Shown here: positions 10,300 to 26,601 of the stretch, piece by piece
Layout: each line of letters begins with the position of its first letter
Position numbering within the stretch: the stretch's first letter is position 1
Origin: a bacterium
Lineage (GTDB): Bacteria; Patescibacteriota; Patescibacteriia; JACQSD01
Assembly (NCBI GenBank): GCA_030648795.1
Contig: JAUSHC010000022.1
Coordinates: 1 to 42,936 of the forward strand
DNA length: 42,936 nt
Direction: 5' to 3'
Translations under genes and position numbers: made by a program
Notes under the pieces: model-generated
Database searches by the model: none
Seen by the model: the letters and a program-made list of their open reading frames with translations, nothing else
What the model was told of the DNA's origin: nothing

Positions 10300-11388
10300 A
10301 TGCGACGCATACTTCTTCTGACTCTCGAGTATCCTCCTGATCGCGGGGGGGTTGCGCGATATTACGGTGGGCTCGTTGGCGCCATGCCCGCGGGCTCTGT
10401 TGTTGTGATGCGCGCGAGACTTTCACGTTGGATCTGGCCACGGTGGTTGCCATTGCTGTGGCAAGTGTGGCGAACAGTGCGTCGTGAAAAGATTACCGAA
10501 ATCTGGGGCGGGCATTTGCTTCCCCTTGGTACGGTTGTGTACCTATTAAAAAAATTACTTACTACAAACTACAAACTACAAACTACAGTATTCGTGCACG
10601 GCTATGATCTTCTGCTCGCCGAAACCCATCCGCGAAAACGAATGATCGCTCGACGCATTTTGAATTCCGCGGATCGCATTGTGACGAACAGTGAATATGG
10701 GAAAAGTTTGGTTGTCGCTCGAGGTATTTCGGAAGCGAAAGTGACTGTCGTGTATCCTTGTCCTACCGCGGTTTTCTCCCCCTTTGCAAGGGGGAGTGAG
10801 AGGGGGTTGAGAGAACGTTATCATCTCGAAGACAAAAAAATTCTCTTGACCGTGGCGCGTTTAGTAGAACGAAAGGGGATTGATTTGGTGTTGGAGGCGC
10901 TGAAAAAAATAGATAATCCCAACATCGTATATGTGATTATTGGTGACGGGCCGGAAAAAGAAAAATTAAACTTACAACTTACAACTTACAACTTATCCGC
11001 CTTACTTGTTGGCGCAGTTTCTGATAAAGCACTTTCTATGTGGTACGCGTTGTGTGACGTATTTATTATGACGCCACGAAAGATTGGTCCGGATGTGGAA
11101 GGATTCGGGCTTGTGTACCTTGAAGCGAATGCATTTGGGAAGCCGGTGATTGGCTCGCGTACCGGTGGCGTTCCGGAGGCGGTCGTGGATGGCGAAACCG
11201 GATTGCTTGTAAACGAAGGTGATGTTGATGGTATTGCGAAAGCGATCGAGCGATTATTTTCAGATGACGCATTGCGAAAAAAACTTGGCGAACAAGGTCG
11301 TACGCGGGTAGAGCAAGAGTTTCAGTGGGAGACACAGGCACAGATATTGTTCGAGCGTAGTCGAGAACTTCCTTTTGGAGAGGGGTGA
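10300..11388 (+). CDS. Glycosyltransferase family 4 with three in-frame mini-inserts
   Basis: YPPDRGGV, VARLVERKG, EGFGLVYLEA, GGVPEAV. Confidence 0.93.
   Translation: MRRILLLTLEYPPDRGGVARYYGGLVGAMPAGSVVVMRARLSRWIWPRWLPLLWQVWRTVRREKITEIWGGHLLPLGTVVYLLKKLLTTNYKLQTTVFVHGYDLLLAETHPRKRMIARRILNSADRIVTNSEYGKSLVVARGISEAKVTVVYPCPTAVFSPFARGSERGLRERYHLEDKKILLTVARLVERKGIDLVLEALKKIDNPNIVYVIIGDGPEKEKLNLQLTTYNLSALLVGAVSDKALSMWYALCDVFIMTPRKIGPDVEGFGLVYLEANAFGKPVIGSRTGGVPEAVVDGETGLLVNEGDVDGIAKAIERLFSDDALRKKLGEQGRTRVEQEFQWETQAQILFERSRELPFGEG
10561..10587 (+). repeat. Heptamer tandem repeat (ACTACAA)x3.9, in frame
   Basis: Encodes TTNYKLQTT. Confidence 0.85.
10776..10808 (+). repeat. In-frame hairpin element
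   Basis: ctccccctt-tgc-aagggggag then tgagagggggtt; encodes SPFARGSERGL in the GT-B interdomain linker. Confidence 0.7.
10970..10995 (+). repeat. Heptamer tandem repeat (ACTTACA)x3.7, in frame
   Basis: Encodes NLQLTTYNL. Confidence 0.85.
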
Positions 11389-11396
11389 AAAAGAAA

Positions 11397-11430
11397 TAAA
11401 AAAATGCCTCGGCGCGCGTGGCGACGAGGC
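11397..11430 (-). terminator. Intrinsic terminator for the small minus-strand ORF
   Basis: Minus strand reads gcctcg..cgaggc then attttttt. Confidence 0.5.
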
Positions 11431-11471
11431 GAAGTAGGGGACGTAGAAGAGACACGAAAATGAGAGTTACT

Positions 11472-11651
11472 TCAGACCTTTTTTGGACAAGGTTCAGTGG
11501 GAGTGGAAGGATCTGTGGTAATGACGATACGCCAATATAAGGCAGGGGCGAGTACGTTCATTACCTCTGCGTGCGCCCAATTGTAACCAGGTGGTACTGC
11601 CCTTTTGTGCGTTTCGTGAACTTCTTTGTGTCCAGTTTTTTCGTCCGCCAT
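11472..11651 (-). CDS. Small hypothetical protein (59 aa)
   Basis: MADEKTGHKEV...; GAGGGAGA upstream; fills an intergenic gap; terminator downstream. Confidence 0.45.
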   Translation of the reverse strand: MADEKTGHKEVHETHKRAVPPGYNWAHAEVMNVLAPALYWRIVITTDPSTPTEPCPKKV

Positions 11652-11692
11652 GGCTCTCTCCCTCAAGATTGGCTCGTGAAATTTTCCCCTTG

Positions 11693-11701
11693 TGCTAGAA
11701 T
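11693..11701 (+). promoter_or_regulatory. Extended -10 promoter with very short leader
   Basis: TGcTAGAAT 11 nt before ATG 11713. Confidence 0.5.
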
Positions 11702-11712
11702 AACAGATATCT

Positions 11713-12456
11713 ATGCCAGTGACAATCAGCATCATCATTCCAACCTATAATCATCGTGTGGCGCTTGAAAAGTGTCTTGCGAATATTGCGGTTCAGACGT
11801 TTAGGGATTTCGAAGTGATTGTGGTGGATGATGGCTCGACGGATGGAACAAATGAGTGGCTACAAGCCATGAAGAATCATGAATTAGGAATTAGGAATTA
11901 TGGAAAAGATCTCCCTGATTCATTATTCATTATTCATAATTCGTCCAACAAAGGCGCTCCTGCCGCCCGCAACGCAGGTTTGCAAAAAGCAAAAGGGGAG
12001 TATATTCTTTTTTGCGACGCGGATGTTGTGATGCAACCGAACATGTTGCAGAAAATGTACGACGCATTGCAAGCGCATCCGGAAGCGTCGTATGCGTACT
12101 CGTCATTTACATTCGGATGGAAAAAATTTATACTTTGGCCGTTTGATGGCGAGAAGTTACAGCGCATGCCATATATCCATTCCACGTCACTCATTCGGCG
12201 CGTGCATTTCCCCAAAGTCGGTTGGGATGAATCGTTGAAACGTTTACAAGACTGGGATTTATTTTTAACGATGTTAGAGGAGGGGCATACAGGCGTTTGG
12301 ATTCCTGATATACTGCTTACTATTACCGTACGCCGTGGTGGTATTAGTAACTGGCTACCATCATTTCTCTATAAATTTCCGTTTTTACCGAGCGTGAAAA
12401 AATATAAAGCGGCAGAGTCGATTGTTCGTAAGAAACATAAAATTTCAATGTTATGA
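11713..12456 (+). CDS. Glycosyltransferase family 2
   Basis: ISIIIPTYN, VVDDGSTDGT, ARNAG, FCDAD, LQDWD. Confidence 0.93.
   Translation: MPVTISIIIPTYNHRVALEKCLANIAVQTFRDFEVIVVDDGSTDGTNEWLQAMKNHELGIRNYGKDLPDSLFIIHNSSNKGAPAARNAGLQKAKGEYILFCDADVVMQPNMLQKMYDALQAHPEASYAYSSFTFGWKKFILWPFDGEKLQRMPYIHSTSLIRRVHFPKVGWDESLKRLQDWDLFLTMLEEGHTGVWIPDILLTITVRRGGISNWLPSFLYKFPFLPSVKKYKAAESIVRKKHKISML
11874..11942. repeat. Heptamer-built hairpin insert, copy 1 (in frame)
   Basis: gaatcat gaattag gaattag gaattat .. ctgattc attattc attattc ataattc; 69 nt. Confidence 0.85.
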
Positions 12457-12487
12457 GGTCGGACCTCGTAATGGAGATCCGACCTCG
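12454..12487. repeat. REP-like doublet of 15-nt quasi-palindromes
   Basis: tgaggtcggacctcg-taat-ggagatccgacctcg, overlapping the GT2 stop codon. Confidence 0.65.
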
Positions 12488-12496
12488 ACAGTTTGC

Positions 12497-14047
12497 ATGA
12501 AAAAGTTTTTTTCTTTTTTTTGGGGCATTGTTCGATCCTACGGCGAGTCGTTTGTTGAAGCGATCGGGGAGAATGAATACACGCAGGAGTTCAAAGAGCG
12601 CTATCCGCGCGTCTTTCGTTTTGTAAAAAATCGTTTATCGCCGCGCGAATATCTTGGACTCCATCTCACTATCGGATTTTTTATTGCGCTTTATCTCACC
12701 AATCAATGCATCGAGCTCATTACCTCCATTGTCCGCAATACGGAGCTTGCACAGATTGATGTCAACATCATCACGTTTCTCACCGCGACGCGAACGGGCG
12801 TTCTCATGAAGCCTATGTTTTTTTTCACGGCACTTGGCAACTGGCCGACGATTGCATTGTTTTTTCTTTTTTTCGCAACACTGTGGATTTGGCAGAAGCG
12901 GTGGTTTCGCGTGTGGATGCTTTTTTTAACCATGGCTGGAAGCGAAGCGATCGCCATACTCATGAAAATTTTTATTGCGCGTCCACGACCGGATTCTGCA
13001 GGCGCGCTCCTTCTTGAAACAACCTATAGCTTTCCGTCGGGGCATGCGCTTATTGCGCTGTCATTTTACGGATTCCTTACATACATATGGTTGCGCGAGC
13101 GACGACATATTGTGACGCGTATCGTCATATTTCTTTTTGCGGCTTTCACTATAGTGGGAGTGGGGGTGAGTCGCATTTATCTTGGTGTGCATTGGCCGTC
13201 GGATGTGCTTGGCGGGTATCTTCTTGCGCTTATCTGGTTGACCGTCATTGCGACTGCCGCTGACCTGCGAAAACGTTTTGTGCGTGAGCGGCACTATCCG
13301 ACAGAAACACTTTTTCCTTTTCGATGGATTGCCCCTCTGCTTATTGTATTCGGATCGGCTGTGTTGGTGTATGTTGTCGCGTTTGTTGCGCGTCCGCATT
13401 TTGAGCCGTCGGCGTTGCATCGGCATATTGATATTACCGGGACGGAGAGCGCCACTTCTCTTGACGCCGCAATGTTAGACAACCTCCCAAATATAAGCGA
13501 AGGGTTGACCGGGCGTTCGCTCGAACCGGTGAATCTCATTTTTATTGGCAATGCAGAGGAAGTGGACAGCGCCATGACAAAGGCAGGATGGTTTCTTGCG
13601 GAACAAGTGACACTCAAATCGTCTTGGGATATTTTTCTTCGGGTACTCCGGAACAGATCATATCCGACCGCCCCGGTATCTCCCGCATTTTTGTATGATC
13701 GACCGCAAGATAGCGCGTGGCAAAAGCCGACGGAAAAAAATTCTCCGCGTGAACGCCACCATATTCGTTTGTGGCGTGATGAGCGCTATACAATTGATGG
13801 CAAGGCGCTTTGGGTGGGGACCGCAAGCTTTGACGCGGGTATACGACTTACAGCGACCATACGGATTCCCACGCATCGCATCGCGCCGGCGATTGATGTG
13901 GAACGGGATCTCGTGGTGAGTGACTTGCGGCGTGTTGGAGCGATTCAAAAAGAAGAATCGGTGCAGCGCTATGATCCATTTCTAGGGGTTAATGCGATTG
14001 GAGATCAGTTTTTCACCGATGGGAAGGCGGTGATTCTATCCCTATGA
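12497..14047 (+). CDS. PAP2 phosphatase fused to an LssY-like C-terminal domain
   Basis: KIFIARPRP, SFPSGH, SRIYLGVHWPSD; EPVNLIFIG, RHHIRLW; ATG 12497. Confidence 0.88.
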   Translation: MKKFFSFFWGIVRSYGESFVEAIGENEYTQEFKERYPRVFRFVKNRLSPREYLGLHLTIGFFIALYLTNQCIELITSIVRNTELAQIDVNIITFLTATRTGVLMKPMFFFTALGNWPTIALFFLFFATLWIWQKRWFRVWMLFLTMAGSEAIAILMKIFIARPRPDSAGALLLETTYSFPSGHALIALSFYGFLTYIWLRERRHIVTRIVIFLFAAFTIVGVGVSRIYLGVHWPSDVLGGYLLALIWLTVIATAADLRKRFVRERHYPTETLFPFRWIAPLLIVFGSAVLVYVVAFVARPHFEPSALHRHIDITGTESATSLDAAMLDNLPNISEGLTGRSLEPVNLIFIGNAEEVDSAMTKAGWFLAEQVTLKSSWDIFLRVLRNRSYPTAPVSPAFLYDRPQDSAWQKPTEKNSPRERHHIRLWRDERYTIDGKALWVGTASFDAGIRLTATIRIPTHRIAPAIDVERDLVVSDLRRVGAIQKEESVQRYDPFLGVNAIGDQFFTDGKAVILSL

Positions 14048-14065
14048 ATTTCTAACGGGACGGGG

Positions 14066-14141
14066 TTCACCCCGTTAGAAGCCGCCCTGCCAACGGCAGT
14101 GCTACAGGCACCTCGGGGCGCCTTGCCTCTAACGGGGTTCA
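14066..14141. mobile_element. MITE-like 68-nt element, copy 1 (intergenic)
   Basis: TTCA-ccccgttaga...tctaacgggg-TTCA; 60/68 identical to the copy at 17349. Confidence 0.75.
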
Positions 14142-14194
14142 CAACACAGAAAAAAAAGAGTATGATAAAAGCATTCTAATCTCTCTACATATTT

Positions 14195-15313
14195 ATGCCT
14201 CCAGCAAAATCTATTTTTACCCACGGCGGTGTTGCGCAGTCATCAGAGAAGAAAGAAGTCAAGGAAGCACAGAAAGCGGGTATCTGCGTTGTTTTGAAAA
14301 AGCGCGATAAGTCCTTTTTGCGGCATCATGCGGATACGCCGGAGGAGTGTCTCCCGGTGCTTGCCACTGCTCATCTTTCATGGGTCGATTTTGCCGTTGA
14401 GGACGTGTATCGCGATGGAAAGGTGATCGCAAAAACGTTTGGGTTCTCTAATGAGCTCGTCGGACGTATTCTCTCTGATGACAAGTCAAACTATTATGAT
14501 TTTAATGAAGAATTCGGCATGCGCTTTCCTTCGGTGCGTGTTGATAAATTGAACGTGGAGGTTATTCCTTTGGCAATCTTTGTGCATAAAGGACTCGTAC
14601 TTACGATACACGCAGAGACGTCCAATCGTCTTGTAAAATTCTCTCGATATGCAGATAGTTTTTTTCAGAAAATTCCAAAAGAGGCAGGAGAGCCTGAACA
14701 GCTGACAATCCTCCTTGCCCGTATCATTAACGAAAATAATGATCGAAACTTTGATTATCTTCGGGATCTTGAAGAGCAAGGTGACGCGCTTTCATCACAG
14801 CTCGTGAAAAATGAGATAGAGCGGGAAAAGGTGGGGCAAGACGTCTATCGCATGAAGCATGCGCTTATCCGCTATTTGGATACGCTTTGGGTGAGCCTTG
14901 ATGTTATTAGCGCACTGCGACATGGCGATCCGAATTTATTGACGAACGATAAAGAAATTTTGCGACAGTTTACACTCATGGCGGATGATATAAACCGTCA
15001 GATCCAGCTTTCAGAACATATGTCTTCCGTACTTGTTTCGGGATTAGAAGTCATGCAAACGATTTACAACAATCAATTGCAGGTATTGAATAATCGCATG
15101 ACGCACGTGATGACATGGTTGACGGTACTTGGCACTGCGGTGTTGGTGCCGAATACGCTTGCAACGGTGATGAGTTCACTTTCTGATTTACAGCCGATGC
15201 ATCATCTTTGGTATATTTCTATTCTTGTCCTTTCGACTCTTGTGTCGACTGTCGGCGCGTATTGGTGGGTGAAAAATAAGGCGCGCTTACCGGCAAAGAT
15301 GAAAGAAGAATAA
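14195..15313 (+). CDS. CorA-family divalent cation transporter
   Basis: SWVDF, VLTIH, long coiled stalk, NNQLQVLNNRMTHVMTWLT and two C-terminal TM helices; GMN absent. Confidence 0.8.
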   Translation: MPPAKSIFTHGGVAQSSEKKEVKEAQKAGICVVLKKRDKSFLRHHADTPEECLPVLATAHLSWVDFAVEDVYRDGKVIAKTFGFSNELVGRILSDDKSNYYDFNEEFGMRFPSVRVDKLNVEVIPLAIFVHKGLVLTIHAETSNRLVKFSRYADSFFQKIPKEAGEPEQLTILLARIINENNDRNFDYLRDLEEQGDALSSQLVKNEIEREKVGQDVYRMKHALIRYLDTLWVSLDVISALRHGDPNLLTNDKEILRQFTLMADDINRQIQLSEHMSSVLVSGLEVMQTIYNNQLQVLNNRMTHVMTWLTVLGTAVLVPNTLATVMSSLSDLQPMHHLWYISILVLSTLVSTVGAYWWVKNKARLPAKMKEE

Positions 15314-15318
15314 TCATT

Positions 15319-16335
15319 ATGTCGCAACCTATTTTCGATCAAAAAATTATTCTCGTCACCGGAGGCGCTGGATTTATCGGTTCTTTCTTGTGCGAAGAGC
15401 TTGCAAAGAACGCTACAGTAATTTGCGTTGATAATTTTGTATCGGGATCGCAGACGAACATCGACGCGCTTTTCCGCAATCCGAATTTCATTTTTTTGAA
15501 GCACGATTTGCGCGAGCCATTTGATCCGGAAGCGTTTCCGGAACTTGAACGCCTGAAGATTAAATTTCAAGGAATTCAAGAGATTTATCATCTTGCGTGT
15601 CCGACATCGCCGAAAGAATTTGATAAATATAGAATTGAAACACTTGAAGCAAATTCCGTAGTAATGAAGCACGTGCTTGATCTGGCAGTGAAGTACAAAT
15701 CGAAAGTCGTGAATGCGTCATCGTCGGTTGTATACGGTCCGCGTCCAGAAGAAAATGCGTTTTTTGTTGAAGAGTATCTTGGTTCGGTTGATTTTTTAAG
15801 TCCGCGTGCGTGCTATGACGAAGGAAAGCGGTTTACGGAAACCATGGTTGCCACCTATGCGCAAGTGCATGGTGTTGATGGGAAGAATGCACGTATCTTT
15901 CGAACGTATGGTCCGCGCATGCGTTTGTTTGATGGGCAAATGATTCCCGATTTTATTACAAACGCGCTCGACGGAAAAGATCTGGTGATTTATGGTGACG
16001 AAACATTTTACACATCGCTTGTGTATGTGACGGATGTGGTGGAGGGACTCGTAAAACTTATGGCAGCGCCGAAAGATATCGGTTCAGTGAATATTGGTTC
16101 GGATCAAGATTTAAAATTAGCAGAGGTTGCAAAAATGATTATTGAGTTGACGAAATCTTCTTCGAAAGTTGCATTTGAAGAGCCGCTTCTTTTCATGACG
16201 CCGCTCGGGCTTCCGGATCTTACGAAAGCGAAAGAGCGTTTGGGCTGGATTCCGATTGTGACATTGGGGCAAGGGCTTACAAAGACGATTGAATATACCA
16301 TGGCGAACAAAACAATATTAGGGATGCGCTCGTAG
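15319..16335 (+). CDS. UDP-glucuronate decarboxylase-like NAD-dependent epimerase/dehydratase
   Basis: TGGAGFIGS, IYHLACPTSP, RACYDEGKR, ARIFRTYGPRM. Confidence 0.92.
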   Translation: MSQPIFDQKIILVTGGAGFIGSFLCEELAKNATVICVDNFVSGSQTNIDALFRNPNFIFLKHDLREPFDPEAFPELERLKIKFQGIQEIYHLACPTSPKEFDKYRIETLEANSVVMKHVLDLAVKYKSKVVNASSSVVYGPRPEENAFFVEEYLGSVDFLSPRACYDEGKRFTETMVATYAQVHGVDGKNARIFRTYGPRMRLFDGQMIPDFITNALDGKDLVIYGDETFYTSLVYVTDVVEGLVKLMAAPKDIGSVNIGSDQDLKLAEVAKMIIELTKSSSKVAFEEPLLFMTPLGLPDLTKAKERLGWIPIVTLGQGLTKTIEYTMANKTILGMRS

Positions 16336-16344
16336 AGATTCTGT

Positions 16345-17022
16345 ATGAAACGTGTCGCGGTGATTCCTGCGTATAATGAAGAACGAACGATAGGGACGGT
16401 GCTTTCCGAGCTCCGTCCGTTTGTGGATGCCATGATTGTGATCGACGATGGGTCACGTGACGCAACTGCGGCGATTGCAGAGCGCGAAGGTGCGATCGTT
16501 TATCGACATTTTTTAAATCGTGGGTTGGGGGCGGCATTGGGGACTGGCATGGAAGTTGCGCTGCGCCAGGGTGCTGATGTTCTTATTACGTTTGATGCGG
16601 ATGGACAGCATCGCGCGAACGATATTCCTGCAATCGTTGCTCCACTACTCCGTGGTACGGCAGACGTTGTTATTGGTGTGCGCACAAAAAATAAGCATGC
16701 GATGCCTGTCGGAAGGCGCATCGCGAATACGATGGCGAATGTCATTACTTTTTTTCTTTTTGGTATTTGGACGTCGGACAGTCAGTCAGGGTTTCGCGCG
16801 TTTACGTCCCAAGCGGCAAGAGCGCTGGATCTCGCGCGCTATCATTTTGAGAATATGGAAGTATCGAGTGCAATTCTTTCTCAAGTTGCGCGCCATAAAC
16901 TTCGTTTTTTTGAGGTGGCGATCGAGCCTGTCTATACGTCCTATTCACTTTCAAAAGGGCAGGGATTTCGTGAAGGGATTCGGACGTTTGTTCGTTTAAT
17001 TATCTATCGCGTTCTCCACTGA
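16345..17022 (+). CDS. Glycosyltransferase family 2 (DPM1-like polyprenol-phosphate glycosyltransferase)
   Basis: IPAYNEE, DDGSRD, FDADGQH, DSQSGFRAF. Confidence 0.92.
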   Translation: MKRVAVIPAYNEERTIGTVLSELRPFVDAMIVIDDGSRDATAAIAEREGAIVYRHFLNRGLGAALGTGMEVALRQGADVLITFDADGQHRANDIPAIVAPLLRGTADVVIGVRTKNKHAMPVGRRIANTMANVITFFLFGIWTSDSQSGFRAFTSQAARALDLARYHFENMEVSSAILSQVARHKLRFFEVAIEPVYTSYSLSKGQGFREGIRTFVRLIIYRVLH

Positions 17023-17357
17023 TGCTTATTCAATACCTTCTTATTCTTTTTGTCTTTTTTGCGTTGTCCCGAGTGGTGATGCGCGCGAAGGCACATGAAA
17101 TAACGACGCGCGAATTTTTATTTTGGTTCTTTTTTTGGTTGTGTGCGGCGATCGTCATTGCATGGCCGAATAGTTTGAATCGCTTTGCGGATGTTCTTGG
17201 CGTCGGGAGGGGGGTTGATGTCGTACTGTACGCTGCACTCGTGATTCTTTTTTATGTGGTGTTCCGTATTTTTACTCGCATCGAACGGATCGAACGCGAT
17301 ATCACGTTGCTTGTTCGGCGAAAGGCGTTAGAAGAAAACGACCATGAACCCCGTTAG
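17022..17357 (+). CDS. DUF2304 family membrane protein
   Basis: LGVGRGVD, IERDITLLVR; typical partner of DPM1-like GT2. Confidence 0.85.
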   Translation: MLIQYLLILFVFFALSRVVMRAKAHEITTREFLFWFFFWLCAAIVIAWPNSLNRFADVLGVGRGVDVVLYAALVILFYVVFRIFTRIERIERDITLLVRRKALEENDHEPR

Positions 17358-18567
17358 AAGCCGCCCTGCCAAAGGCACGGCTACGGCCGCCTCGGGGCGC
17401 CCTGCTTCTAACGGGGTGAACCCCGCTAAGATTTCTGTTGTTCTTCTTACATACAATGGGAAGAAGTATCTTCCTGATTTATTCGCAAGCCTGCAAAAGA
17501 CTGCGTGCGCGTATCCATGGCAATTGATTGTCGTGGATAATGCGTCGACGGATGGCACAGCCGAGTGGCTTACGAATTATGAATCAGGAATTAAGAATCA
17601 GGGGGATCGTCAACTCCATAATTCATTATTCATAATTCATAATTCTACTAACGCGGGTTTTGCCGCCGGCAACAATGTCGGTATCCGTAAAGCGCTTGCA
17701 GACGGCGCAGAGTACGTTGTTCTTTTGAATCAAGATACGGTTGTGGATCCGAATTGGCTCACAGAACTTGTTGTAGCCGCGGAAAGCGACGAAACTATTG
17801 GTGCCGTGCAGGCGCGACTCATGCTTTGGGATAAAAAAGATACAGTAAACTCCCTCGGCAACGAGATTCACTTTCTCGGCTTTGGGTATACGAGTGGATA
17901 TAAAAAAACTTATGCCGCCTACGGACGGCACCCCGTCAACGGCGGTGGCAACTTAACCGCCTACCGGATAGGCAGGCAACTTACAACTGACAACTATCCA
18001 GAGATCACCTACGCCTCCGGCGCCGCTGTCTTATACCGCGCAAAAGCACTCCGCGAGGTCGGGCTCTTCGATGAGTCGCTTTGGATGTATCACGATGATT
18101 TGGATCTTGGATGGCGACTCTGGCGCGCGGGATGGAAAAATGTTTTAGCACACGTATCCGTTGTTTACCACAAATACGAATTTTCGCGGAGCATTAAAAA
18201 ATATTATTTCATGGAACGCAATCGTTTTTTGGTGTTGTTTGAGAATTATTCGTTGCGAACGCTCGTACTGATCGCTCCTGCGCTCGTCGTGATGGAGCTT
18301 GGACTTTTTGTGAAAGCGATTGTGTCGGGGTGGGGGAAGGAAAAACTGCGGGCGTATGCGTATTTTTTTCAACTTTCGGCATGGCGAATGGTTTTAGAAA
18401 AGCGCAAAGAGAAACAGAAATTTTTCCGTTGTCCCGAACGAGAATTGTTAGCGCGCTTTACGGGCGTGATTGCATTTCAAGATCTGCAAAGCTCCGTGCT
18501 TACGTATATCGCAAATCCGATATTTAATGCGTATTGGCAGATCATCCAATATATACTTCGAGTGTAG
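17344..18567 (+). CDS. Glycosyltransferase family 2 (WbbL/rhamnosyltransferase-like) with three in-frame inserts
   Basis: VDNASTDGT, GFAAGNNVG, LLNQD, GLFDE, YHDDLDLGWR; start may be the GTG at 17416. Confidence 0.92.
   Translation: MNPVRSRPAKGTATAASGRPASNGVNPAKISVVLLTYNGKKYLPDLFASLQKTACAYPWQLIVVDNASTDGTAEWLTNYESGIKNQGDRQLHNSLFIIHNSTNAGFAAGNNVGIRKALADGAEYVVLLNQDTVVDPNWLTELVVAAESDETIGAVQARLMLWDKKDTVNSLGNEIHFLGFGYTSGYKKTYAAYGRHPVNGGGNLTAYRIGRQLTTDNYPEITYASGAAVLYRAKALREVGLFDESLWMYHDDLDLGWRLWRAGWKNVLAHVSVVYHKYEFSRSIKKYYFMERNRFLVLFENYSLRTLVLIAPALVVMELGLFVKAIVSGWGKEKLRAYAYFFQLSAWRMVLEKRKEKQKFFRCPERELLARFTGVIAFQDLQSSVLTYIANPIFNAYWQIIQYILRV
17345..17420. mobile_element. MITE-like 68-nt element, copy 2 (in frame at the GT2 N-terminus)
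   Basis: TGAA-ccccgttagaag...cttctaacgggg-TGAA; encodes NPVRSRPAKGTATAASGRPASNGV. Confidence 0.75.
17574..17645. repeat. Heptamer-built hairpin insert, copy 2 (in frame)
   Basis: gaattat gaatcag gaattaa gaatcag .. ataattc attattc ataattc ataattc; 72 nt. Confidence 0.85.
17907..17996 (+). repeat. Composite insert: CAACTTA-type heptamers interrupted by two GC-rich hairpins
   Basis: aactta-tgccgcc..ggtggca-acttaa-ccgcctaccggataggcagg-caacttacaactgacaacta. Confidence 0.7.
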
Positions 18568-18583
18568 TCGAGAAGTACATTTT

Positions 18584-19603
18584 ATGAAACATTCCGTCAT
18601 CGAAAATCCTTTCGCTCCAGAAAAACAGCGCAGTTCCGACGACTCTGCTTTTGTTGGGAAGATTTTGGGTGCGGAAGCGGAAGCTGCGATGCGGAAAGCA
18701 GTAGGAAAGACAGAGGTGCAGGAACCCGAGCCAGCGACAGACCTTGATCTTACAGACGCCGAGCATGTGCGAGCTGAACAAGAGAGGCGAGAACGTTCTT
18801 CAGAATGGAAAATGGAACACGCGCGGAAAGAGCTTTGTGCATGGGCGGAGGAGATTGGAAAAGATGCTGATTGGGCTCTCGAAACCTTTACCATCCACAC
18901 TGACGGCACGCTTACGGTAGAAGGGGATTTGGATCTCACGCATCTTCCGGTGACGCATCTCCCCAAAGGATTGCGAGAGGTTGGAGGAATCCTTGGTCTC
19001 GGAATGACGAAAATTATTTCCATTGAAGGGTTTCCGGAAAAGGTTGGTGGGGATGTTGATCTTACGGGAGTTCAAATTATTTCTCTTAAAGGTTTTCCGC
19101 AGACTATCGGTGGCAATATTTTTCTTGCGGATACTAGAATAAAATCTCTCCATGGACTGCCAAAAAAAATTGAAAAAGATCTTCATCTTTCGCGTACTGA
19201 TATTGCATCCTTGAGAGGTCTTCCGCAAAACATTGGCGGTAGTCTTTATCTTGATGGTGTTACAACTCTTATGTCTCTTGATGGATTGCCGGAAAGGATT
19301 CCTGGAGATCTTAGTCTTTACTGGTCTCTCGTCTCTTCCCTTCACGGATTATCCAAGGAAATTGGAGGGGATCTTGATCTACGAGGCACGAGCATCACTT
19401 CTCTTGACGGACTTCCTCTGCCTGAAAATATTGGAGGGAAGGTACTTCTTTTTACTCAACAACAGGATGCACTTATTAGTGTAGTGGGAAAAGACGATGA
19501 TTATTATGGTATATATGATATAGACGACAAGACGGATGTTGAACGGACGGATGATGAACGGACTCGAGAGGAGGCAAATAAACCAGAGGATCGACTTTAT
19601 TGA
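18584..19603 (+). CDS. Leucine-rich-repeat-like protein with 22-aa GGDLDL repeats
   Basis: About 8 repeats of IGGxLxLxxTxIxSLxGLPxx; ATG 18584. Confidence 0.8.
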   Translation: MKHSVIENPFAPEKQRSSDDSAFVGKILGAEAEAAMRKAVGKTEVQEPEPATDLDLTDAEHVRAEQERRERSSEWKMEHARKELCAWAEEIGKDADWALETFTIHTDGTLTVEGDLDLTHLPVTHLPKGLREVGGILGLGMTKIISIEGFPEKVGGDVDLTGVQIISLKGFPQTIGGNIFLADTRIKSLHGLPKKIEKDLHLSRTDIASLRGLPQNIGGSLYLDGVTTLMSLDGLPERIPGDLSLYWSLVSSLHGLSKEIGGDLDLRGTSITSLDGLPLPENIGGKVLLFTQQQDALISVVGKDDDYYGIYDIDDKTDVERTDDERTREEANKPEDRLY

Positions 19604-19611
19604 AAAATTTT

Positions 19612-20793
19612 ATGCGCATCGCTCATCTCGTTTCCACGTTTCCTCCCTACTATGGTGGCATGGGCAATGCCGTATTTGGCATGGCGCAGGAATCGGCGAA
19701 GCGCGGGCACGAGGTGACGGTGTTAACGGCGAAGCAGGAATCAGGAATAAGGAATAAGGGAGATCGATCCATAATTCCTAATTCATTATTCATAATTCGA
19801 AGATTGCGTTCGTTCGGCCGATGGGGCAACGCCGCGTTCCTTCCCCAACTTTTTTGGATGCTTGATGATTACGACATTGTGCATCTGCATTACCCGTTTT
19901 TTGGCGGGGCGGAAGCTGCAGCACTTTGGCGCGCATCGCAGTTAAAACGAGGGCGGCAGCTTGTCGTCACGTATCACATGGATGCGATCGCCGACGGATG
20001 GCTTGGTCGTGTGTTCGCGTGGCACAATCGTTTCATTCTTCCCTCCATTCTTTCTTTAGCGGATCGAATCATCGTGACATCGTTCGATTATGCAGAACAT
20101 TCTTTGCTGAAGCAGTACGAATCACGCGTGAAAAATAAGATGGTAGAGATTCCATTAGGTGTTGATACCGAGCGTTTTACGCCTCGAGAAAAGGACGCAG
20201 AACTATTACGACAGCACAAGATTGATCCGGCATCATTTACATTGTTGTTTGTTGGCGGGCTTGATCGCGCACATGCATTTAAAGGCGTCGAAGTGTTGAT
20301 CCGTTCGTTTAAACTTTTTTCAGAATTTCAACATGTGGATGATAGGAGAGCACATACGCTCGTCATCGTCGGTGATGGCGCCCTTCGACCATCGTATGCT
20401 GCGCTTGCGCTTGAGCTTGGAATACAGGATAAAATTGTATTTACCGGTCGTGTTGCGCCTGATGATCTTCCGCGGTATTATGCGACTGCGGATTGTGTTG
20501 TACTACCATCGATAAACCAGTCAGAAGCTTTTGGTATGACAATTCTTGAGGCAATGGCTTGTGGAAGACCGGTAATTGCATCGCTTCTTCCGGGTGTGAG
20601 GAAGCTTGTTCTTGACCGGAGGACGGGCTTATTTGCGAAGCCGAGCGATATTGTTGGTCTTGCGAAAGTCATCGCAGTAATTGCTGATGATCCCGAACTT
20701 CGCGTACGATACGGCAATGCGGGAAGAGAGCGAGCACTTGATCGATATACATGGAGCGCCGTGGGAGAGGAGTTGGAGCGAGTGTATCGATAA
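19612..20793 (+). CDS. Glycosyltransferase family 4
   Basis: FPPYYGGM, HLHYPF, FVGGLD..FKG, SEAFGMTILEAMACG; ATG 19612. Confidence 0.93.
   Translation: MRIAHLVSTFPPYYGGMGNAVFGMAQESAKRGHEVTVLTAKQESGIRNKGDRSIIPNSLFIIRRLRSFGRWGNAAFLPQLFWMLDDYDIVHLHYPFFGGAEAAALWRASQLKRGRQLVVTYHMDAIADGWLGRVFAWHNRFILPSILSLADRIIVTSFDYAEHSLLKQYESRVKNKMVEIPLGVDTERFTPREKDAELLRQHKIDPASFTLLFVGGLDRAHAFKGVEVLIRSFKLFSEFQHVDDRRAHTLVIVGDGALRPSYAALALELGIQDKIVFTGRVAPDDLPRYYATADCVVLPSINQSEAFGMTILEAMACGRPVIASLLPGVRKLVLDRRTGLFAKPSDIVGLAKVIAVIADDPELRVRYGNAGRERALDRYTWSAVGEELERVYR
19731..19798. repeat. Heptamer-built hairpin insert, copy 3 (in frame)
   Basis: gaagcag gaatcag gaataag gaataag .. ataattc ctaattc attattc ataattc. Confidence 0.85.
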
Positions 20794-20797
20794 ATAT

Positions 20798-21468
20798 ATG
20801 CGTATCTGTCTTATCAGCAATCTTTATCCTCCCTATACTCGTGGCGGGGCGGAGCGGGTGGTTGCAACGATTGCGAAGGAATTGCAACGCGCAGGGCATA
20901 GCGTGATCGTGATCACAACCGTGCCATCGTTTGCGGCGAATATAAAGGCGCTTGCGTCTGGTGGGTTTCTTCATGAAACGGTTGACGGCATCACCGTGTA
21001 TCGCATCGCAACCGCGAACCTTTTTCCGTACTGGACCATTGGCGAACATAATGTTGTGATGCGTTTCATTTGGCATGTGTTTGATATGTTTGCCTTTGAA
21101 ACCGCAGCAACAGTACGTCGCATTTTGCGAAAAGAAAAAGCGGACGTGGTGATGACGCACAATTTGAAGGGGATTGGGTTCTTGGTCCCGCGGGCGATTC
21201 GACGTCTTGGTATTCGGCATATTCATACGGCACACGATGTCCAGCTTGCAGTGCCTTCCGGTCTCATTTTTGTTAGGCAGAAACCGGTGTTCATTCTTTT
21301 GTTCCTTATGCAGTGGTATGAGCGATTGACGCGCTGGCTTATCGGTTCGCCGGACGTGGTCGTCTCACCATCGCAATGGCTCCTTGATTTTTATACCGAA
21401 CGAGGATTTTTTTCGCAGTCCAAAAAAGTTGTCTTGCATAATCCGATTTTACAAGGGGCACCCTTGCA
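20798..21468 (+). CDS. Glycosyltransferase family 4, N-terminal domain only, cut by the fold point (the ORF reads on to 21598 in mirrored sequence)
   Basis: SNLYPPYTRGGAE, HTAHD, VSPSQW, VLHNPI; no C-terminal ExF-type motif. Confidence 0.85.
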
Positions 21469-21485
21469 TGCAAGGGTGCCCCTTG
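21452..21485. repeat. REP-like doublet of 15-nt quasi-palindromes at the symmetry centre
   Basis: caaggggcacccttg-catg-caagggtgccccttg. Confidence 0.65.
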
Positions 21486-22139
21486 TAAAATCGGATTATG
21501 CAAGACAACTTTTTTGGACTGCGAAAAAAATCCTCGTTCGGTATAAAAATCAAGGAGCCATTGCGATGGTGAGACGACCACGTCCGGCGAACCGATAAGC
21601 CAGCGCGTCAATCGCTCATACCACTGCATAAGGAACAAAAGAATGAACACCGGTTTCTGCCTAACAAAAATGAGACCGGAAGGCACTGCAAGCTGGACAT
21701 CGTGTGCCGTATGAATATGCCGAATACCAAGACGTCGAATCGCCCGCGGGACCAAGAACCCAATCCCCTTCAAATTGTGCGTCATCACCACGTCCGCTTT
21801 TTCTTTTCGCAAAATGCGACGTACTGTTGCTGCGGTTTCAAAGGCAAACATATCAAACACATGCCAAATGAAACGCATCACAACATTATGTTCGCCAATG
21901 GTCCAGTACGGAAAAAGGTTCGCGGTTGCGATGCGATACACGGTGATGCCGTCAACCGTTTCATGAAGAAACCCACCAGACGCAAGCGCCTTTATATTCG
22001 CCGCAAACGATGGCACGGTTGTGATCACGATCACGCTATGCCCTGCGCGTTGCAATTCCTTCGCAATCGTTGCAACCACCCGCTCCGCCCCGCCACGAGT
22101 ATAGGGAGGATAAAGATTGCTGATAAGACAGATACGCAT
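21469..22139 (-). CDS. GT4 N-terminal fragment (mirror copy)
   Basis: Mirror of 20798-21468. Confidence 0.75.
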
Positions 22140-22143
22140 ATAT

Positions 22144-23325
22144 TTATCGATACACTCGCTCCAACTCCTCTCCCACGGCGCTCCATGTATATCGATCAAG
22201 TGCTCGCTCTCTTCCCGCATTGCCGTATCGTACGCGAAGTTCGGGATCATCAGCAATTACTGCGATGACTTTCGCAAGACCAACAATATCGCTCGGCTTC
22301 GCAAATAAGCCCGTCCTCCGGTCAAGAACAAGCTTCCTCACACCCGGAAGAAGCGATGCAATTACCGGTCTTCCACAAGCCATTGCCTCAAGAATTGTCA
22401 TACCAAAAGCTTCTGACTGGTTTATCGATGGTAGTACAACACAATCCGCAGTCGCATAATACCGCGGAAGATCATCAGGCGCAACACGACCGGTAAATAC
22501 AATTTTATCCTGTATTCCAAGCTCAAGCGCAAGCGCAGCATACGATGGTCGAAGGGCGCCATCACCGACGATGACGAGCGTATGTGCTCTCCTATCATCC
22601 ACATGTTGAAATTCTGAAAAAAGTTTAAACGAACGGATCAACACTTCGACGCCTTTAAATGCATGTGCGCGATCAAGCCCGCCAACAAACAACAATGTAA
22701 ATGATGCCGGATCAATCTTGTGCTGTCGTAATAGTTCTGCGTCCTTTTCTCGAGGCGTAAAACGCTCGGTATCAACACCTAATGGAATCTCTACCATCTT
22801 ATTTTTCACGCGTGATTCGTACTGCTTCAGCAAAGAATGTTCTGCATAATCGAACGATGTCACGATGATTCGATCCGCTAAAGAAAGAATGGAGGGAAGA
22901 ATGAAACGATTGTGCCACGCGAACACACGACCAAGCCATCCGTCGGCGATCGCATCCATGTGATACGTGACGACAAGCTGCCGCCCTCGTTTTAACTGCG
23001 ATGCGCGCCAAAGTGCTGCAGCTTCCGCCCCGCCAAAAAACGGGTAATGCAGATGCACAATGTCGTAATCATCAAGCATCCAAAAAAGTTGGGGAAGGAA
23101 CGCGGCGTTGCCCCATCGGCCGAACGAACGCAATCTTCGAATTATGAATAATGAATTAGGAATTATGGATCGATCTCCCTTATTCCTTATTCCTGATTCC
23201 TGCTTCGCCGTTAACACCGTCACCTCGTGCCCGCGCTTCGCCGATTCCTGCGCCATGCCAAATACGGCATTGCCCATGCCACCATAGTAGGGAGGAAACG
23301 TGGAAACGAGATGAGCGATGCGCAT
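22144..23325 (-). CDS. Glycosyltransferase family 4 (mirror copy)
   Basis: Mirror of 19612-20793. Confidence 0.85.
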   Translation of the reverse strand: MRIAHLVSTFPPYYGGMGNAVFGMAQESAKRGHEVTVLTAKQESGIRNKGDRSIIPNSLFIIRRLRSFGRWGNAAFLPQLFWMLDDYDIVHLHYPFFGGAEAAALWRASQLKRGRQLVVTYHMDAIADGWLGRVFAWHNRFILPSILSLADRIIVTSFDYAEHSLLKQYESRVKNKMVEIPLGVDTERFTPREKDAELLRQHKIDPASFTLLFVGGLDRAHAFKGVEVLIRSFKLFSEFQHVDDRRAHTLVIVGDGALRPSYAALALELGIQDKIVFTGRVAPDDLPRYYATADCVVLPSINQSEAFGMTILEAMACGRPVIASLLPGVRKLVLDRRTGLFAKPSDIVGLAKVIAVIADDPELRVRYGNAGRERALDRYTWSAVGEELERVYR

Positions 23326-23333
23326 AAAATTTT

Positions 23334-24353
23334 TCAATAAAGTCGATCCTCTGGTTTATTTGCCTCCTCTCGAGTCCGTTCATCATCCGTCCGTTCAACA
23401 TCCGTCTTGTCGTCTATATCATATATACCATAATAATCATCGTCTTTTCCCACTACACTAATAAGTGCATCCTGTTGTTGAGTAAAAAGAAGTACCTTCC
23501 CTCCAATATTTTCAGGCAGAGGAAGTCCGTCAAGAGAAGTGATGCTCGTGCCTCGTAGATCAAGATCCCCTCCAATTTCCTTGGATAATCCGTGAAGGGA
23601 AGAGACGAGAGACCAGTAAAGACTAAGATCTCCAGGAATCCTTTCCGGCAATCCATCAAGAGACATAAGAGTTGTAACACCATCAAGATAAAGACTACCG
23701 CCAATGTTTTGCGGAAGACCTCTCAAGGATGCAATATCAGTACGCGAAAGATGAAGATCTTTTTCAATTTTTTTTGGCAGTCCATGGAGAGATTTTATTC
23801 TAGTATCCGCAAGAAAAATATTGCCACCGATAGTCTGCGGAAAACCTTTAAGAGAAATAATTTGAACTCCCGTAAGATCAACATCCCCACCAACCTTTTC
23901 CGGAAACCCTTCAATGGAAATAATTTTCGTCATTCCGAGACCAAGGATTCCTCCAACCTCTCGCAATCCTTTGGGGAGATGCGTCACCGGAAGATGCGTG
24001 AGATCCAAATCCCCTTCTACCGTAAGCGTGCCGTCAGTGTGGATGGTAAAGGTTTCGAGAGCCCAATCAGCATCTTTTCCAATCTCCTCCGCCCATGCAC
24101 AAAGCTCTTTCCGCGCGTGTTCCATTTTCCATTCTGAAGAACGTTCTCGCCTCTCTTGTTCAGCTCGCACATGCTCGGCGTCTGTAAGATCAAGGTCTGT
24201 CGCTGGCTCGGGTTCCTGCACCTCTGTCTTTCCTACTGCTTTCCGCATCGCAGCTTCCGCTTCCGCACCCAAAATCTTCCCAACAAAAGCAGAGTCGTCG
24301 GAACTGCGCTGTTTTTCTGGAGCGAAAGGATTTTCGATGACGGAATGTTTCAT
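23334..24353 (-). CDS. LRR-like repeat protein (mirror copy)
   Basis: Mirror of 18584-19603. Confidence 0.75.
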   Translation of the reverse strand: MKHSVIENPFAPEKQRSSDDSAFVGKILGAEAEAAMRKAVGKTEVQEPEPATDLDLTDAEHVRAEQERRERSSEWKMEHARKELCAWAEEIGKDADWALETFTIHTDGTLTVEGDLDLTHLPVTHLPKGLREVGGILGLGMTKIISIEGFPEKVGGDVDLTGVQIISLKGFPQTIGGNIFLADTRIKSLHGLPKKIEKDLHLSRTDIASLRGLPQNIGGSLYLDGVTTLMSLDGLPERIPGDLSLYWSLVSSLHGLSKEIGGDLDLRGTSITSLDGLPLPENIGGKVLLFTQQQDALISVVGKDDDYYGIYDIDDKTDVERTDDERTREEANKPEDRLY

Positions 24354-24369
24354 AAAATGTACTTCTCGA

Positions 24370-25593
24370 CTACACTCGAAGTATATATTGGATGATCTGC
24401 CAATACGCATTAAATATCGGATTTGCGATATACGTAAGCACGGAGCTTTGCAGATCTTGAAATGCAATCACGCCCGTAAAGCGCGCTAACAATTCTCGTT
24501 CGGGACAACGGAAAAATTTCTGTTTCTCTTTGCGCTTTTCTAAAACCATTCGCCATGCCGAAAGTTGAAAAAAATACGCATACGCCCGCAGTTTTTCCTT
24601 CCCCCACCCCGACACAATCGCTTTCACAAAAAGTCCAAGCTCCATCACGACGAGCGCAGGAGCGATCAGTACGAGCGTTCGCAACGAATAATTCTCAAAC
24701 AACACCAAAAAACGATTGCGTTCCATGAAATAATATTTTTTAATGCTCCGCGAAAATTCGTATTTGTGGTAAACAACGGATACGTGTGCTAAAACATTTT
24801 TCCATCCCGCGCGCCAGAGTCGCCATCCAAGATCCAAATCATCGTGATACATCCAAAGCGACTCATCGAAGAGCCCGACCTCGCGGAGTGCTTTTGCGCG
24901 GTATAAGACAGCGGCGCCGGAGGCGTAGGTGATCTCTGGATAGTTGTCAGTTGTAAGTTGCCTGCCTATCCGGTAGGCGGTTAAGTTGCCACCGCCGTTG
25001 ACGGGGTGCCGTCCGTAGGCGGCATAAGTTTTTTTATATCCACTCGTATACCCAAAGCCGAGAAAGTGAATCTCGTTGCCGAGGGAGTTTACTGTATCTT
25101 TTTTATCCCAAAGCATGAGTCGCGCCTGCACGGCACCAATAGTTTCGTCGCTTTCCGCGGCTACAACAAGTTCTGTGAGCCAATTCGGATCCACAACCGT
25201 ATCTTGATTCAAAAGAACAACGTACTCTGCGCCGTCTGCAAGCGCTTTACGGATACCGACATTGTTGCCGGCGGCAAAACCCGCGTTAGTAGAATTATGA
25301 ATTATGAATAATGAATTATGGAGTTGACGATCCCCCTGATTCTTAATTCCTGATTCATAATTCGTAAGCCACTCGGCTGTGCCATCCGTCGACGCATTAT
25401 CCACGACAATCAATTGCCATGGATACGCGCACGCAGTCTTTTGCAGGCTTGCGAATAAATCAGGAAGATACTTCTTCCCATTGTATGTAAGAAGAACAAC
25501 AGAAATCTTAGCGGGGTTCACCCCGTTAGAAGCAGGGCGCCCCGAGGCGGCCGTAGCCGTGCCTTTGGCAGGGCGGCTTCTAACGGGGTTCAT
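24370..25593 (-). CDS. Glycosyltransferase family 2 (mirror copy)
   Basis: Mirror of 17344-18567. Confidence 0.85.
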   Translation of the reverse strand: MNPVRSRPAKGTATAASGRPASNGVNPAKISVVLLTYNGKKYLPDLFASLQKTACAYPWQLIVVDNASTDGTAEWLTNYESGIKNQGDRQLHNSLFIIHNSTNAGFAAGNNVGIRKALADGAEYVVLLNQDTVVDPNWLTELVVAAESDETIGAVQARLMLWDKKDTVNSLGNEIHFLGFGYTSGYKKTYAAYGRHPVNGGGNLTAYRIGRQLTTDNYPEITYASGAAVLYRAKALREVGLFDESLWMYHDDLDLGWRLWRAGWKNVLAHVSVVYHKYEFSRSIKKYYFMERNRFLVLFENYSLRTLVLIAPALVVMELGLFVKAIVSGWGKEKLRAYAYFFQLSAWRMVLEKRKEKQKFFRCPERELLARFTGVIAFQDLQSSVLTYIANPIFNAYWQIIQYILRV

Positions 25594-25915
25594 GGTCGTT
25601 TTCTTCTAACGCCTTTCGCCGAACAAGCAACGTGATATCGCGTTCGATCCGTTCGATGCGAGTAAAAATACGGAACACCACATAAAAAAGAATCACGAGT
25701 GCAGCGTACAGTACGACATCAACCCCCCTCCCGACGCCAAGAACATCCGCAAAGCGATTCAAACTATTCGGCCATGCAATGACGATCGCCGCACACAACC
25801 AAAAAAAGAACCAAAATAAAAATTCGCGCGTCGTTATTTCATGTGCCTTCGCGCGCATCACCACTCGGGACAACGCAAAAAAGACAAAAAGAATAAGAAG
25901 GTATTGAATAAGCAT
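25580..25915 (-). CDS. DUF2304 family protein (mirror copy)
   Basis: Mirror of 17022-17357. Confidence 0.8.
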   Translation of the reverse strand: MLIQYLLILFVFFALSRVVMRAKAHEITTREFLFWFFFWLCAAIVIAWPNSLNRFADVLGVGRGVDVVLYAALVILFYVVFRIFTRIERIERDITLLVRRKALEENDHEPR

Positions 25916-26592: not shown

Positions 26593-26601
26593 ACAGAATC
26601 T

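Follow-up and report, generated by a model that had tools for sequence, protein, structure and literature searches.

The window analysed here is a 42,936-nt stretch of DNA, the whole of contig C37 in a patescibacterial genome (G000; 1,109,047 bases in 92 contigs, 94% complete), in which several glycosyltransferase (GT) genes of the GT2 and GT4 families carry short repeats that leave their reading frames open. A sequence-only reading had taken these inserts for a diversification system focused on the protein loops of surface-glycan enzymes. This is too narrow: the inserts appear to be local members of a short-repeat population that extends over the whole genome and also across this bacterial class, and the genome-wide pattern, with its tie to genes of the PF05635 family, is more interesting than a reading confined to GT genes. 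The proposed population would have four parts, namely 7-base tandem arrays, hairpins of two inverted arrays around a 9-20-nt loop, small G+C-rich hairpins, some of them nested in arrays, and a ~70-nt element with terminal inverted repeats (TIRs). We lean towards regarding the inserts as a selfish repeat family that is linked to PF05635 genes and filtered by selection. What would be the full-length versions of these hairpins hold, in their loop, a four-helix-bundle gene of the PF05635 family, and for this reason hairpins without an open reading frame (ORF) are best read as miniature derivatives of PF05635 elements.

Repeats in the glycosyltransferase genes of the window

Coordinates are window positions throughout, and only positions 1-21468 are unique DNA. 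The repeats found there, with RNA folds compared with those of shuffled sequences (z), are as follows.

10561..10587, + strand: tandem array ACTACAA x3.9 in GT4a (Tandem Repeats Finder (TRF), 100% matches; peptide TTNYKLQTT)
10778..10794, + strand: small G+C hairpin CCCCCTTTGCAAGGGGG in GT4a (peptide SPFARG)
10969..10995, + strand: tandem array AACTTAC x3.9 in GT4a (TRF; peptide NLQLTTYNL)
11874..11942, + strand: heptamer hairpin in GT2a (peptide HELGIRNYGKDLPDSLFIIHNS; fold -19.6 kcal/mol, z = -2.1)
14069..14138, + strand: ~70-nt TIR element, intergenic copy between the PAP2/LssY_C gene and CorA (BLAST)
17345..17420, + strand: ~70-nt TIR element at the DUF2304/GT2c boundary (fold -48.5 kcal/mol, z = -5.5)
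17574..17645, + strand: heptamer hairpin in GT2c (arrays 17581-17645; peptide ESGIKNQGDRQLHNSLFIIHNS; fold -21 kcal/mol, z = -5.4)
17905..17995, + strand: nested composite of ~90 nt in GT2c (AACTTA(C) array enclosing a G+C-rich element of 36 nt and another small hairpin)
19731..19798, + strand: heptamer hairpin in GT4b (arrays 19736-19798; peptide QESGIRNKGDRSIIPNSLFIIRR; fold -20.5 kcal/mol, z = -3.3)

TRF and direct reading identified eight of the nine inserts listed by the sequence-only reading as genuine repeats in the places given for them; as it had proposed, they are members of dispersed repeat families and open in frame. The ninth, a "15-mer doublet" at 21452, is one natural hairpin plus its mirrored copy at the junction where the contig folds back. 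Inserts had been counted in five of the six GT genes, whereas heptamer arrays occur in four of them (GT4a, GT2a, GT2c and GT4b). Nor are there five unrelated families: one was this artefact, and the ACTACAA and AACTTAC runs match one arm of other hairpin families in G000, the ACTACAA unit being the 3' arm of intergenic hairpins at C6 27067, C91 43423 and C92 8770. The unique half of the window contains 9 period-7 arrays, compared with 3.4 expected from the density in the genome, and all 9 are in the four GT genes.

The arms of the GT2a hairpin are of GAATTAG type on the 5' side (11881-11905) and of ATTCATT type on the 3' side (11918-11942), and the hairpin of GT2c occupies the same structural site. 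The small hairpin at 10778-10794 belongs to a C4-7..G4-7 family with 85 regular-expression matches genome-wide, nested matches being counted separately, many of which lie in ORFs. A separate heptamer run had been noted at 17978; it is present, but as the tail of the composite, whose 3' end is the degenerate run 17977-17995 and whose 36-nt G+C-rich element lies at 17914-17949. G000 has five copies of this 36-59-nt element, all five in ORFs, in sense orientation and with heptamer units on either side; the units flanking the 36-nt nested element could be a target-site duplication (TSD) or the target array itself.

The 68-nt TIR element described at 17349 is a real repeat, but not an insert internal to GT2c: it has a boundary position, where it is readable as a possible 24-aa N-terminal extension of the protein, and it is missing from the GT2c orthologues of two relatives compared at the GT loci of the window (G001, of the same genus as G000, and G002), which start without it. 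From this position, it would be either an N-terminal extension or intergenic. Genome-wide, the element gives 13 BLAST rows in ~8 places, and the copy at 17345-17420 has very high depth in metagenome contigs. The intergenic copy at 14069-14138, at which a contig of metagenome run X1 breaks, is 88.6% identical over 70 nt to the 17341-17430 copy. The RNA folds of the TIR copy at 14050 and of the 10770 hairpin (z of -1.5 and -0.7, respectively) are indistinguishable from shuffles. Of note, the stop codon of DUF2304 comes from the first bases of the TIR element (17345-17353), the protein ending in EPR* here and in EKR* in G001.

Genome-wide arrays, reading frames and turnover

Arrays were counted with TRF (at least 2.6 copies, score of at least 30) over 1,087,579 nt, C37 being halved. 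There are 170 arrays of period 7, typically of 3-5 units, against 3, 24, 24 and 50 of periods 5, 6, 8 and 9, respectively. Stop-free frames of at least 100 aa contain 105 of the 170, compared with 91.5% of 5000 random 29-nt segments, so that arrays are relatively depleted from coding DNA, yet numerous there. When the longest stop-free frame spanning an array is taken as its host, these 105 arrays fall in 76 host frames, 72 of which are outside the window. No Pfam match was found at E <= 1e-5 for 18 of the 72, and the majority of the matched ones are housekeeping genes. Hosts outside the window include the genes for PolA, DnaE, HolA, PolX, six aminoacyl-tRNA synthetase genes (ValRS, IleRS, TyrRS, PheS, PheT and ArgRS), and those for Der, FtsK, UvrB, GatB, enolase, PGK, EF-Ts, RNase III (host frame L025), TsaD, TsaE, ParB, FtsW, MurG, a Mur ligase, a class-V aminotransferase, the CCA-adding enzyme, two Wzy-like proteins and WecG. 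Two further GT2 and two further GT4 genes are hosts outside the window.

Paired inverted arrays with defined loops recur, and 22 such hairpins, with GAAT...ATTC termini, were listed with their flanks. The commonest heptamer unit in G000 (24 arrays) forms intergenic AATTTCT / ATTAGAA inverted pairs with a loop of ~30-80 nt, as at C27 12482-12594, C52 3880-3998, C6 23536-23645, C62 6772-6860, C67 8529-8637 and C81 2095-2223. Of the 170 arrays, 9 are no more than 150 nt away from the end of a contig (2.5% expected, p = 0.04), and elements are points at which metagenome contigs break; the repeats fragment assemblies of these genomes.

The focus on GT genes holds as an enrichment. Arrays were found in 8 of 20 GT2/GT4 frames and in 68 of ~1115 other ORFs (odds ratio 10.3, Fisher p = 1.8e-5; the 1135-ORF background comes from a greedy longest-ORF caller, which mis-called some genes, and is approximate), and GT2/GT4 frames, which make up 2.0% of coding length, contain 18 of the 105 in-ORF arrays. 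It does not hold as exclusivity, since 68 of the 76 host frames are not GT2/GT4. The over-representation is most likely explained by surface loops and edge strands that tolerate changes. A diversification of protein loops directed at glycan enzymes has nothing beyond the GT enrichment in its favour.

The elements had also been described as frame-preserving, which they are not by themselves: the lengths of TRF-delimited arrays modulo 3 are distributed 41/30/34 in ORFs (p = 0.41) and 21/21/23 outside, and an intrinsic frame-preserving length was rejected because there is no significant bias in ORFs. The frame pattern is one of survivorship, filtered by selection. Because 21 nt of a tandem heptamer are read in three phases, an array is open only if its unit is stop-free in all of them. 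Among 102 in-ORF arrays, the tandem consensus has a stop in 35 on the sense strand, where local variants remove it, and in 76 on the antisense strand; outside ORFs, both strands contain stops in 46 of 63 arrays. AACTTAC arrays (13 in all) occur in ORFs without exception and always in the sense direction, and 21 AAATTAG/AATTTCT arrays, with stops on both strands, are outside. Heptamers of the hairpins pair via GAAU/AUUC and are mismatched at three positions where full complementarity gives TAA, TAG or TGA, and the solo runs ACTACAA and AACTTAC are translatable arms, the other arms (GTAGTGA and GTAAGTT, respectively) containing stops. Elements would land or arise anywhere, and within genes only in-frame, stop-free copies would survive and be translated. 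As only stop-free copies survive, each family has one ORF orientation and one stereotyped peptide (NLQLTTY, TTNYKLQ, KSKVESR, ELGIRNYG...SLFIIHNS), and the stop filter in genes likewise leaves families with stops on both strands intergenic. The survivorship pattern therefore argues that the copies are translated.

Comparison with relatives adds that these positions are hot spots at which elements turn over and native sequence is partly overwritten, and not simple presence/absence insertions. In GT4a, GT2a, GT2c and GT4b, the same sites hold different elements in G000, G001 and G002, often of equal length (at one such site, KLNLQLTTYNLSA / NYELGIINYELPV / ALKTQCQMSNVKC, respectively). In GT4a, G001 and G002 bear different arrays of near-equal length at 10561; at 10778, G001 has another member of the C/G-hairpin family (PPLSIRGG) and G002 a heptamer remnant; at 10969, the three genomes have three different arrays of identical length. 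The hairpin site of GT2c holds a different element in G001 and a remnant in G002, both of which are ~21 aa shorter at the composite site 17905-17995, and the hairpin site of GT4b holds a related hairpin in G002 and a short different segment in G001. CorA, the epimerase, GT2b and DUF2304 have no elements in any genome compared. The sequence-only reading had held that loops of equal length in homologues would count against insertion: lengths are equal at some sites, as in GT4a in the three genomes, and not at others. Empty sites are present in more distant GT2a homologues. Among 37 homologues of GT2a, the occupant of the hairpin site can be the hairpin itself, an array of AACTTAC, a hairpin of the C/G type, a nested insert or just a plain short segment, with at least four different occupants at 74-78% identity and the plain short segment in distant ones.

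Housekeeping hosts were compared in the same way. In PGK, the hairpin of G000 is matched in G001 (74% aa identity) by an AAAGTCG-type array that starts from the same nucleotide position, while the other 27 PGKs of the class that were aligned have an ordinary strand at the site (L078 and L097 differ by additional, unrelated residues). Among these 27, one bears an AAAAATC-type array elsewhere. The 30-nt array of enolase corresponds to a net gain of 4 aa relative to PDB 3tqp. In an AlphaFold2 (AF2) model of GT2a (mean predicted local distance difference test (pLDDT) score of 92.4), the 3'-arm peptide LFIIH forms strand 71-75 of a Rossmann-like sheet, so that this arm is predicted to encode core strand beta-3; residues 55-66, from the 5' arm, are coil with pLDDT 68-78. 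Elements would often overwrite native sequence in this manner, and the sites shared by relatives would be hot spots for it.

PF05635 genes and the proposed origin of the repeats

G000 has four PF05635 genes (23S-rRNA-IVS / Avd-like), all four of which lie between inverted 7- or 8-base arrays. Each locus has a different flank unit, that on C21 using 8-nt units, and the loci sit between protein genes, for instance between ftsW and murG on C21. Several enzyme families had been suggested as possible partners of the motifs: a four-helix bundle was indeed found, at four of four loci, but not a Y1/RAYT protein, PF01797 being undetected in G000 (94% complete; other transposase families were not searched genome-wide). 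GAATTAG is both the unit flanking the PF05635 gene of C46 and the unit of the window hairpins, and 59 of 165 arrays in G000 are within one mismatch of that flanking heptamer, where ~2% would be expected.

The association extends well beyond this genome. PF05635 is present in 112 of 151 genomes of the class, with 1-13 hits each. Flank complementarity scores of at least 12 were obtained for 28 of 30 class loci versus 3 of 600 controls, and period 7 was found in both flanks of 18 of the 30 versus 1 of 600. A search across phyla (Bacteroidota, Firmicutes, Proteobacteria, Acidobacteriota, Verrucomicrobiota, Planctomycetota, the candidate phyla radiation (CPR) and others), made with a 6-sequence alignment, gave 80 loci, 74 of them usable; inverted flanks were found at 46 of the 74 versus 8 of 585 cross-paired controls, with period 7 on both sides at 35. 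The periodicity is specific: of 148 flanks, 64 score at least 8 for period 7, 22 for period 8, 4 for period 9, and at most 2 for periods 4-6 and 10. Array density follows PF05635 content: per 100 kb, it is 16.0 where there are at least 6 hits (20 genomes) and 2.5 where there are none (20 genomes; Mann-Whitney test, one-sided, p = 0.004), with 15.6 in G000, a comparison that is confounded by non-independence of kin and by a correlation between per-locus G+C and density (rho = -0.40, p = 0.016). Other periods also differ between the PF05635-rich (L167-L186) and PF05635-free (L147-L166) genomes, with 32 versus 7 arrays of period 8, 22 versus 8 of period 9, and 7 versus 13 of period 6.

PF05635 proteins have been described as homologues of Avd from diversity-generating retroelements (DGRs) (PMC10053308). 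G000 has two DGR-like cassettes of reverse transcriptase (RT) and Avd (C56:17350-18750, L187, and C1:550-1891, L188, with RTs of 337 and 329 aa, respectively), to which the four PF05635 genes are not adjacent. Elsewhere in the class, a PF05635 ORF (L127:1477-2913, in G050) stays open across the heptamer array on its downstream side (SIFYILYSIF) and continues into the following gene as a fusion frame of 478 aa, and two further PF05635 matches lie in frames of 428-515 aa. At another locus (L130, G007:C39), the PF05635 gene directly adjoins the gene for PGK, which is a hairpin host in G000.

On the selfish-repeat reading, the elements would be mobile and PF05635 proteins may take part in their spread. 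A broader proposal, which we put forward only tentatively, is that PF05635 genes within inverted 7-8-nt arrays form a pan-bacterial class of selfish elements, the protein of which would act on cognate arrays; the long-noted excess of heptanucleotide repeats would stem from solo arms and ORF-less derivatives of these elements, which would have spread in frame into essential genes of CPR genomes.

Several observations weigh against the selfish-repeat reading. No TSD, and no fixed terminus beyond GAAT...ATTC, is seen in the 22 listed hairpins, PF01797 was not found, as said above, and equal-length replacement is unlike what simple insertion would predict. AACTTAC, AAAGTCG, AAACATG and AATCGTG arrays are abundant without a cognate PF05635 gene in the assembly, 28 of the 74 loci from the wider phyla have no clear inverted flank, and the confounding of the density comparison has been noted. 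The similarity of heptamers does not significantly follow that of their PF05635 proteins (Mantel p = 0.11, 63 loci), with a trend only in the few pairs of at least 60% identity; a PF05635 gene and its arrays need therefore not be a travelling unit. The protein itself is a 120-aa four-helix bundle without an evident catalytic site. Moreover, GT paralogues share a hairpin site (GT2a and GT2c in the window; 634-1605 and 6492-7418 on C40), and the GT enrichment may have been partly inherited by gene duplication instead of reflecting independent events. Finally, open frames are the sole basis on which in-gene copies would be considered translated and not removed from RNA.

Some of these points would be accounted for if arrays arose in place by polymerase slippage and were immobile, PF05635 genes merely preferring insertion or retention in pre-existing arrays. 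Such an origin has been proposed for heptameric simple sequence repeats (SSRs), which are over-represented in many bacteria (PMC4692102), and it agrees with the lack of TSDs and of PF01797, with the overwriting of native sequence at little net change in length and with heptamers that do not track PF05635 protein similarity. We nonetheless find it unlikely, as the same units are present at many unrelated sites (AACTTAC at 13 places), and ten G000 families take in, at one mismatch or less, 26 of the 55 arrays of 20 further genomes, versus 13% of random heptamers, without correction for composition. Slippage also fits poorly with the recurrence of paired inverted arrays with defined loops, with composites that have identical 36-nt cores at 5 unrelated loci, and with the ~six-fold lower frequency of arrays where a genome has no PF05635 hit, G+C being similar (0.440 vs 0.425); in an essential ORF, a 7-nt slip is a frameshift.

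The elements could also serve the cell, as the sequence-only reading had it for diversification: 7-nt slippage would switch GT genes on and off by phase variation, and element exchange would vary the protein loops of surface-glycan enzymes. In Neisseria, Haemophilus and Campylobacter, it is established that glycosyltransferases phase-vary by means of repeats, GT2/GT4 hosts are enriched about ten-fold, and orthologues at 74-78% identity show a hypervariable GT2a site. This is improbable, however, given that the hosts outside GT2/GT4 (68 of the 76 frames) include many essential single-copy genes whose switching off would be lethal, that short arrays of 3-5 units imply low slippage rates, and that the GT2a hairpin site lies, in the AF2 model, between helix 46-54 and strand 71-75. 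Furthermore, no length variant assignable to this locus was seen in the metagenome contigs compared; the single joint that skips 7 nt, at 11904-11912, comes from one short contig of a collapsed repeat and cannot be placed here. Least probable is that hairpins are cut from RNA by RNase III, in the manner of intervening sequences (IVSs) of rRNA, leaving proteins that lack the encoded peptides. Their architecture is like that of IVS elements, the stems of which RNase III cuts (PMC4990558), folding is better than in shuffled sequences (z from -2.1 to -5.4), and G000 encodes RNase III, itself one of the hosts. However, no ligation follows cutting by RNase III, which would destroy the mRNA, and excision gives no reason for copies to be stop-free, in frame and in a single orientation, nor for arm mismatches within ORFs exactly where perfect pairing creates stop codons; in addition, the AF2 model makes a core strand of the peptide from the 3' arm.

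Contig context, related systems and significance

The window is its own reverse complement, with mismatches at 0 of 42,936 positions around a centre at 21468/21469, and C37 is the sole palindromic contig among the 92 of G000. An independent contig of the groundwater metagenome (run X1), the source of the matching contigs, stops precisely at 21468, and the GT4c orthologues of G001 and G002 extend ~190 aa past the fold-back centre. The palindrome is an artefact of assembly, a fold-back that started from a natural hairpin of 15 nt, and not extra DNA; as a result, the genome size and gene counts of G000 are inflated by 21.5 kb. Bases 1-40 of the window recur in contig C30, and hence C30 and C37 overlap. 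The genes, assigned by Pfam, and the features of the fold-back are as follows.

Start of the unique half, in order: glycoside hydrolase fragment, CofD-like protein, then rpsM-rpsK-rpsD-rpoA-rplQ-rplM-rpsI and an ABC exporter
8846-10294: polysaccharide flippase
10300-11388: GT4a
11713-12456: GT2a
12422-14047: PAP2+LssY_C
14195-15313: CorA
15319-16335: NAD-dependent epimerase/dehydratase
16345-17022: GT2b
17022-17357: DUF2304
17344-18567: GT2c
18584-19603: LRR-like protein
19600-20793: GT4b
from 20798: GT4c, N-terminal part
21452..21468, + strand: fold-back site of the contig, a small natural hairpin (CAAGGG-GCA-CCCTTG) within GT4c
21469..42936, no strand: mirror image of 1-21468 (assembly artefact; feature x recurs at 42937-x)

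As the sequence-only reading had it, the window has no inserts in ribosomal, ABC, CorA or decarboxylase genes, and no transposase or nuclease family was found by Pfam among its 16 scanned proteins. An Rfam scan of 1-21600 gave no family at gathering score. In the database, the nearest homologues of GT2a bear the label Candidatus Uhrbacteria / Patescibacteria. On the syntenic contig of G001, the GT2c and GT4b orthologues are ~110 nt apart and nothing corresponds to the LRR-like gene; it is lineage-specific and inserted into the GT cluster.

A close functional parallel is offered by the Rickettsia palindromic elements (RPEs), short palindromes of several families that are found in frame in unrelated housekeeping genes, translated and compatible with protein folding (PMC10969869). 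The elements of G000 resemble them in giving in-frame, stereotyped peptides in 76 unrelated host frames. RPEs, in contrast, are ~150 bp long (families of about 100-150 bp) and are not tandem heptamers, the likeness being one of description. Elements in G000 are periodic and of 20-90 nt; they frequently take the place of native sequence, differ between congeners through turnover and have relatives that bear PF05635 genes. RPEs are not known to have an associated protein gene. They would thus work like RPEs, without being assigned as members. With the IVSs of 23S rRNA that carry an S23p ORF (Leptospira, Coxiella, Xanthomonas-type), the four G000 loci share a PF05635 ORF between inverted repeats; unlike these IVSs, they are located between protein genes and not in 23S rRNA, and have ORF-less versions inside protein-coding genes. 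The 23S IVS of Coxiella is described as having 2-3 tandem heptamers just upstream of its S23p ORF, in a copy number that varies between strains (PMC4990558).

The short tandemly repeated repetitive (STRR) sequences of cyanobacteria and heptameric SSRs are a further parallel, since heptamer arrays exceed those of other periods (170 versus 3-50 in G000). Tandem heptamers are reported to be over-represented, with 70-75 inverted pairs in Xanthomonas, and to be mainly intergenic and under-represented in coding regions (PMC4692102); the arrays of G000 are not mainly intergenic, with 105 of 170 in open frames. In the passages searched of that paper on Xanthomonas and Nostoc heptamers, PF05635 genes are not mentioned. 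As in MITEs (miniature transposable elements with inverted repeats) and REP doublets forming hairpins (REPINs), the G000 elements are non-autonomous, with inverted arms and many dispersed, assembly-breaking copies, and the terminal inverted repeats of MITEs have counterparts in the inverted heptamer arms and in the strongly folding TIR element (z = -5.5). No TSD was evident in the 22 listed hairpins, however, no RAYT (PF01797) was detected, and the arms are periodic arrays and not unique TIRs. The small dispersed repeats of Nostoc, a subject of Elhai et al. in 2008, reportedly include hairpins nested in heptamer arrays that resemble those of G000. Our literature search found nothing joining CPR/Patescibacteria with heptamer repeats, and no link between PF05635 and heptamer arrays beyond the description of the Coxiella IVS.

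Two questions, the origin of bacterial heptanucleotide repeats and the function of S23p/PF05635 proteins, are tied together physically by the flanks and quantitatively by array density, which makes both testable. Were the broader proposal true, it would explain cyanobacterial STRR, the GGGAATC repeats of Xanthomonas and the heptamers next to the S23p ORF in the IVS of Coxiella, and in the streamlined genomes of CPR bacteria, with their near-zero intergenic space, elements would overwrite segments of essential genes in frame. In this genome of ~1.1 Mb, ~76 genes, many of them essential, would carry repeat-derived peptides, provided that these are translated as their frames suggest, and such peptides are sometimes modelled as core strands. 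This is of relevance for annotation, for alignment-based CPR phylogenomics and for ideas on the origin of new protein segments.

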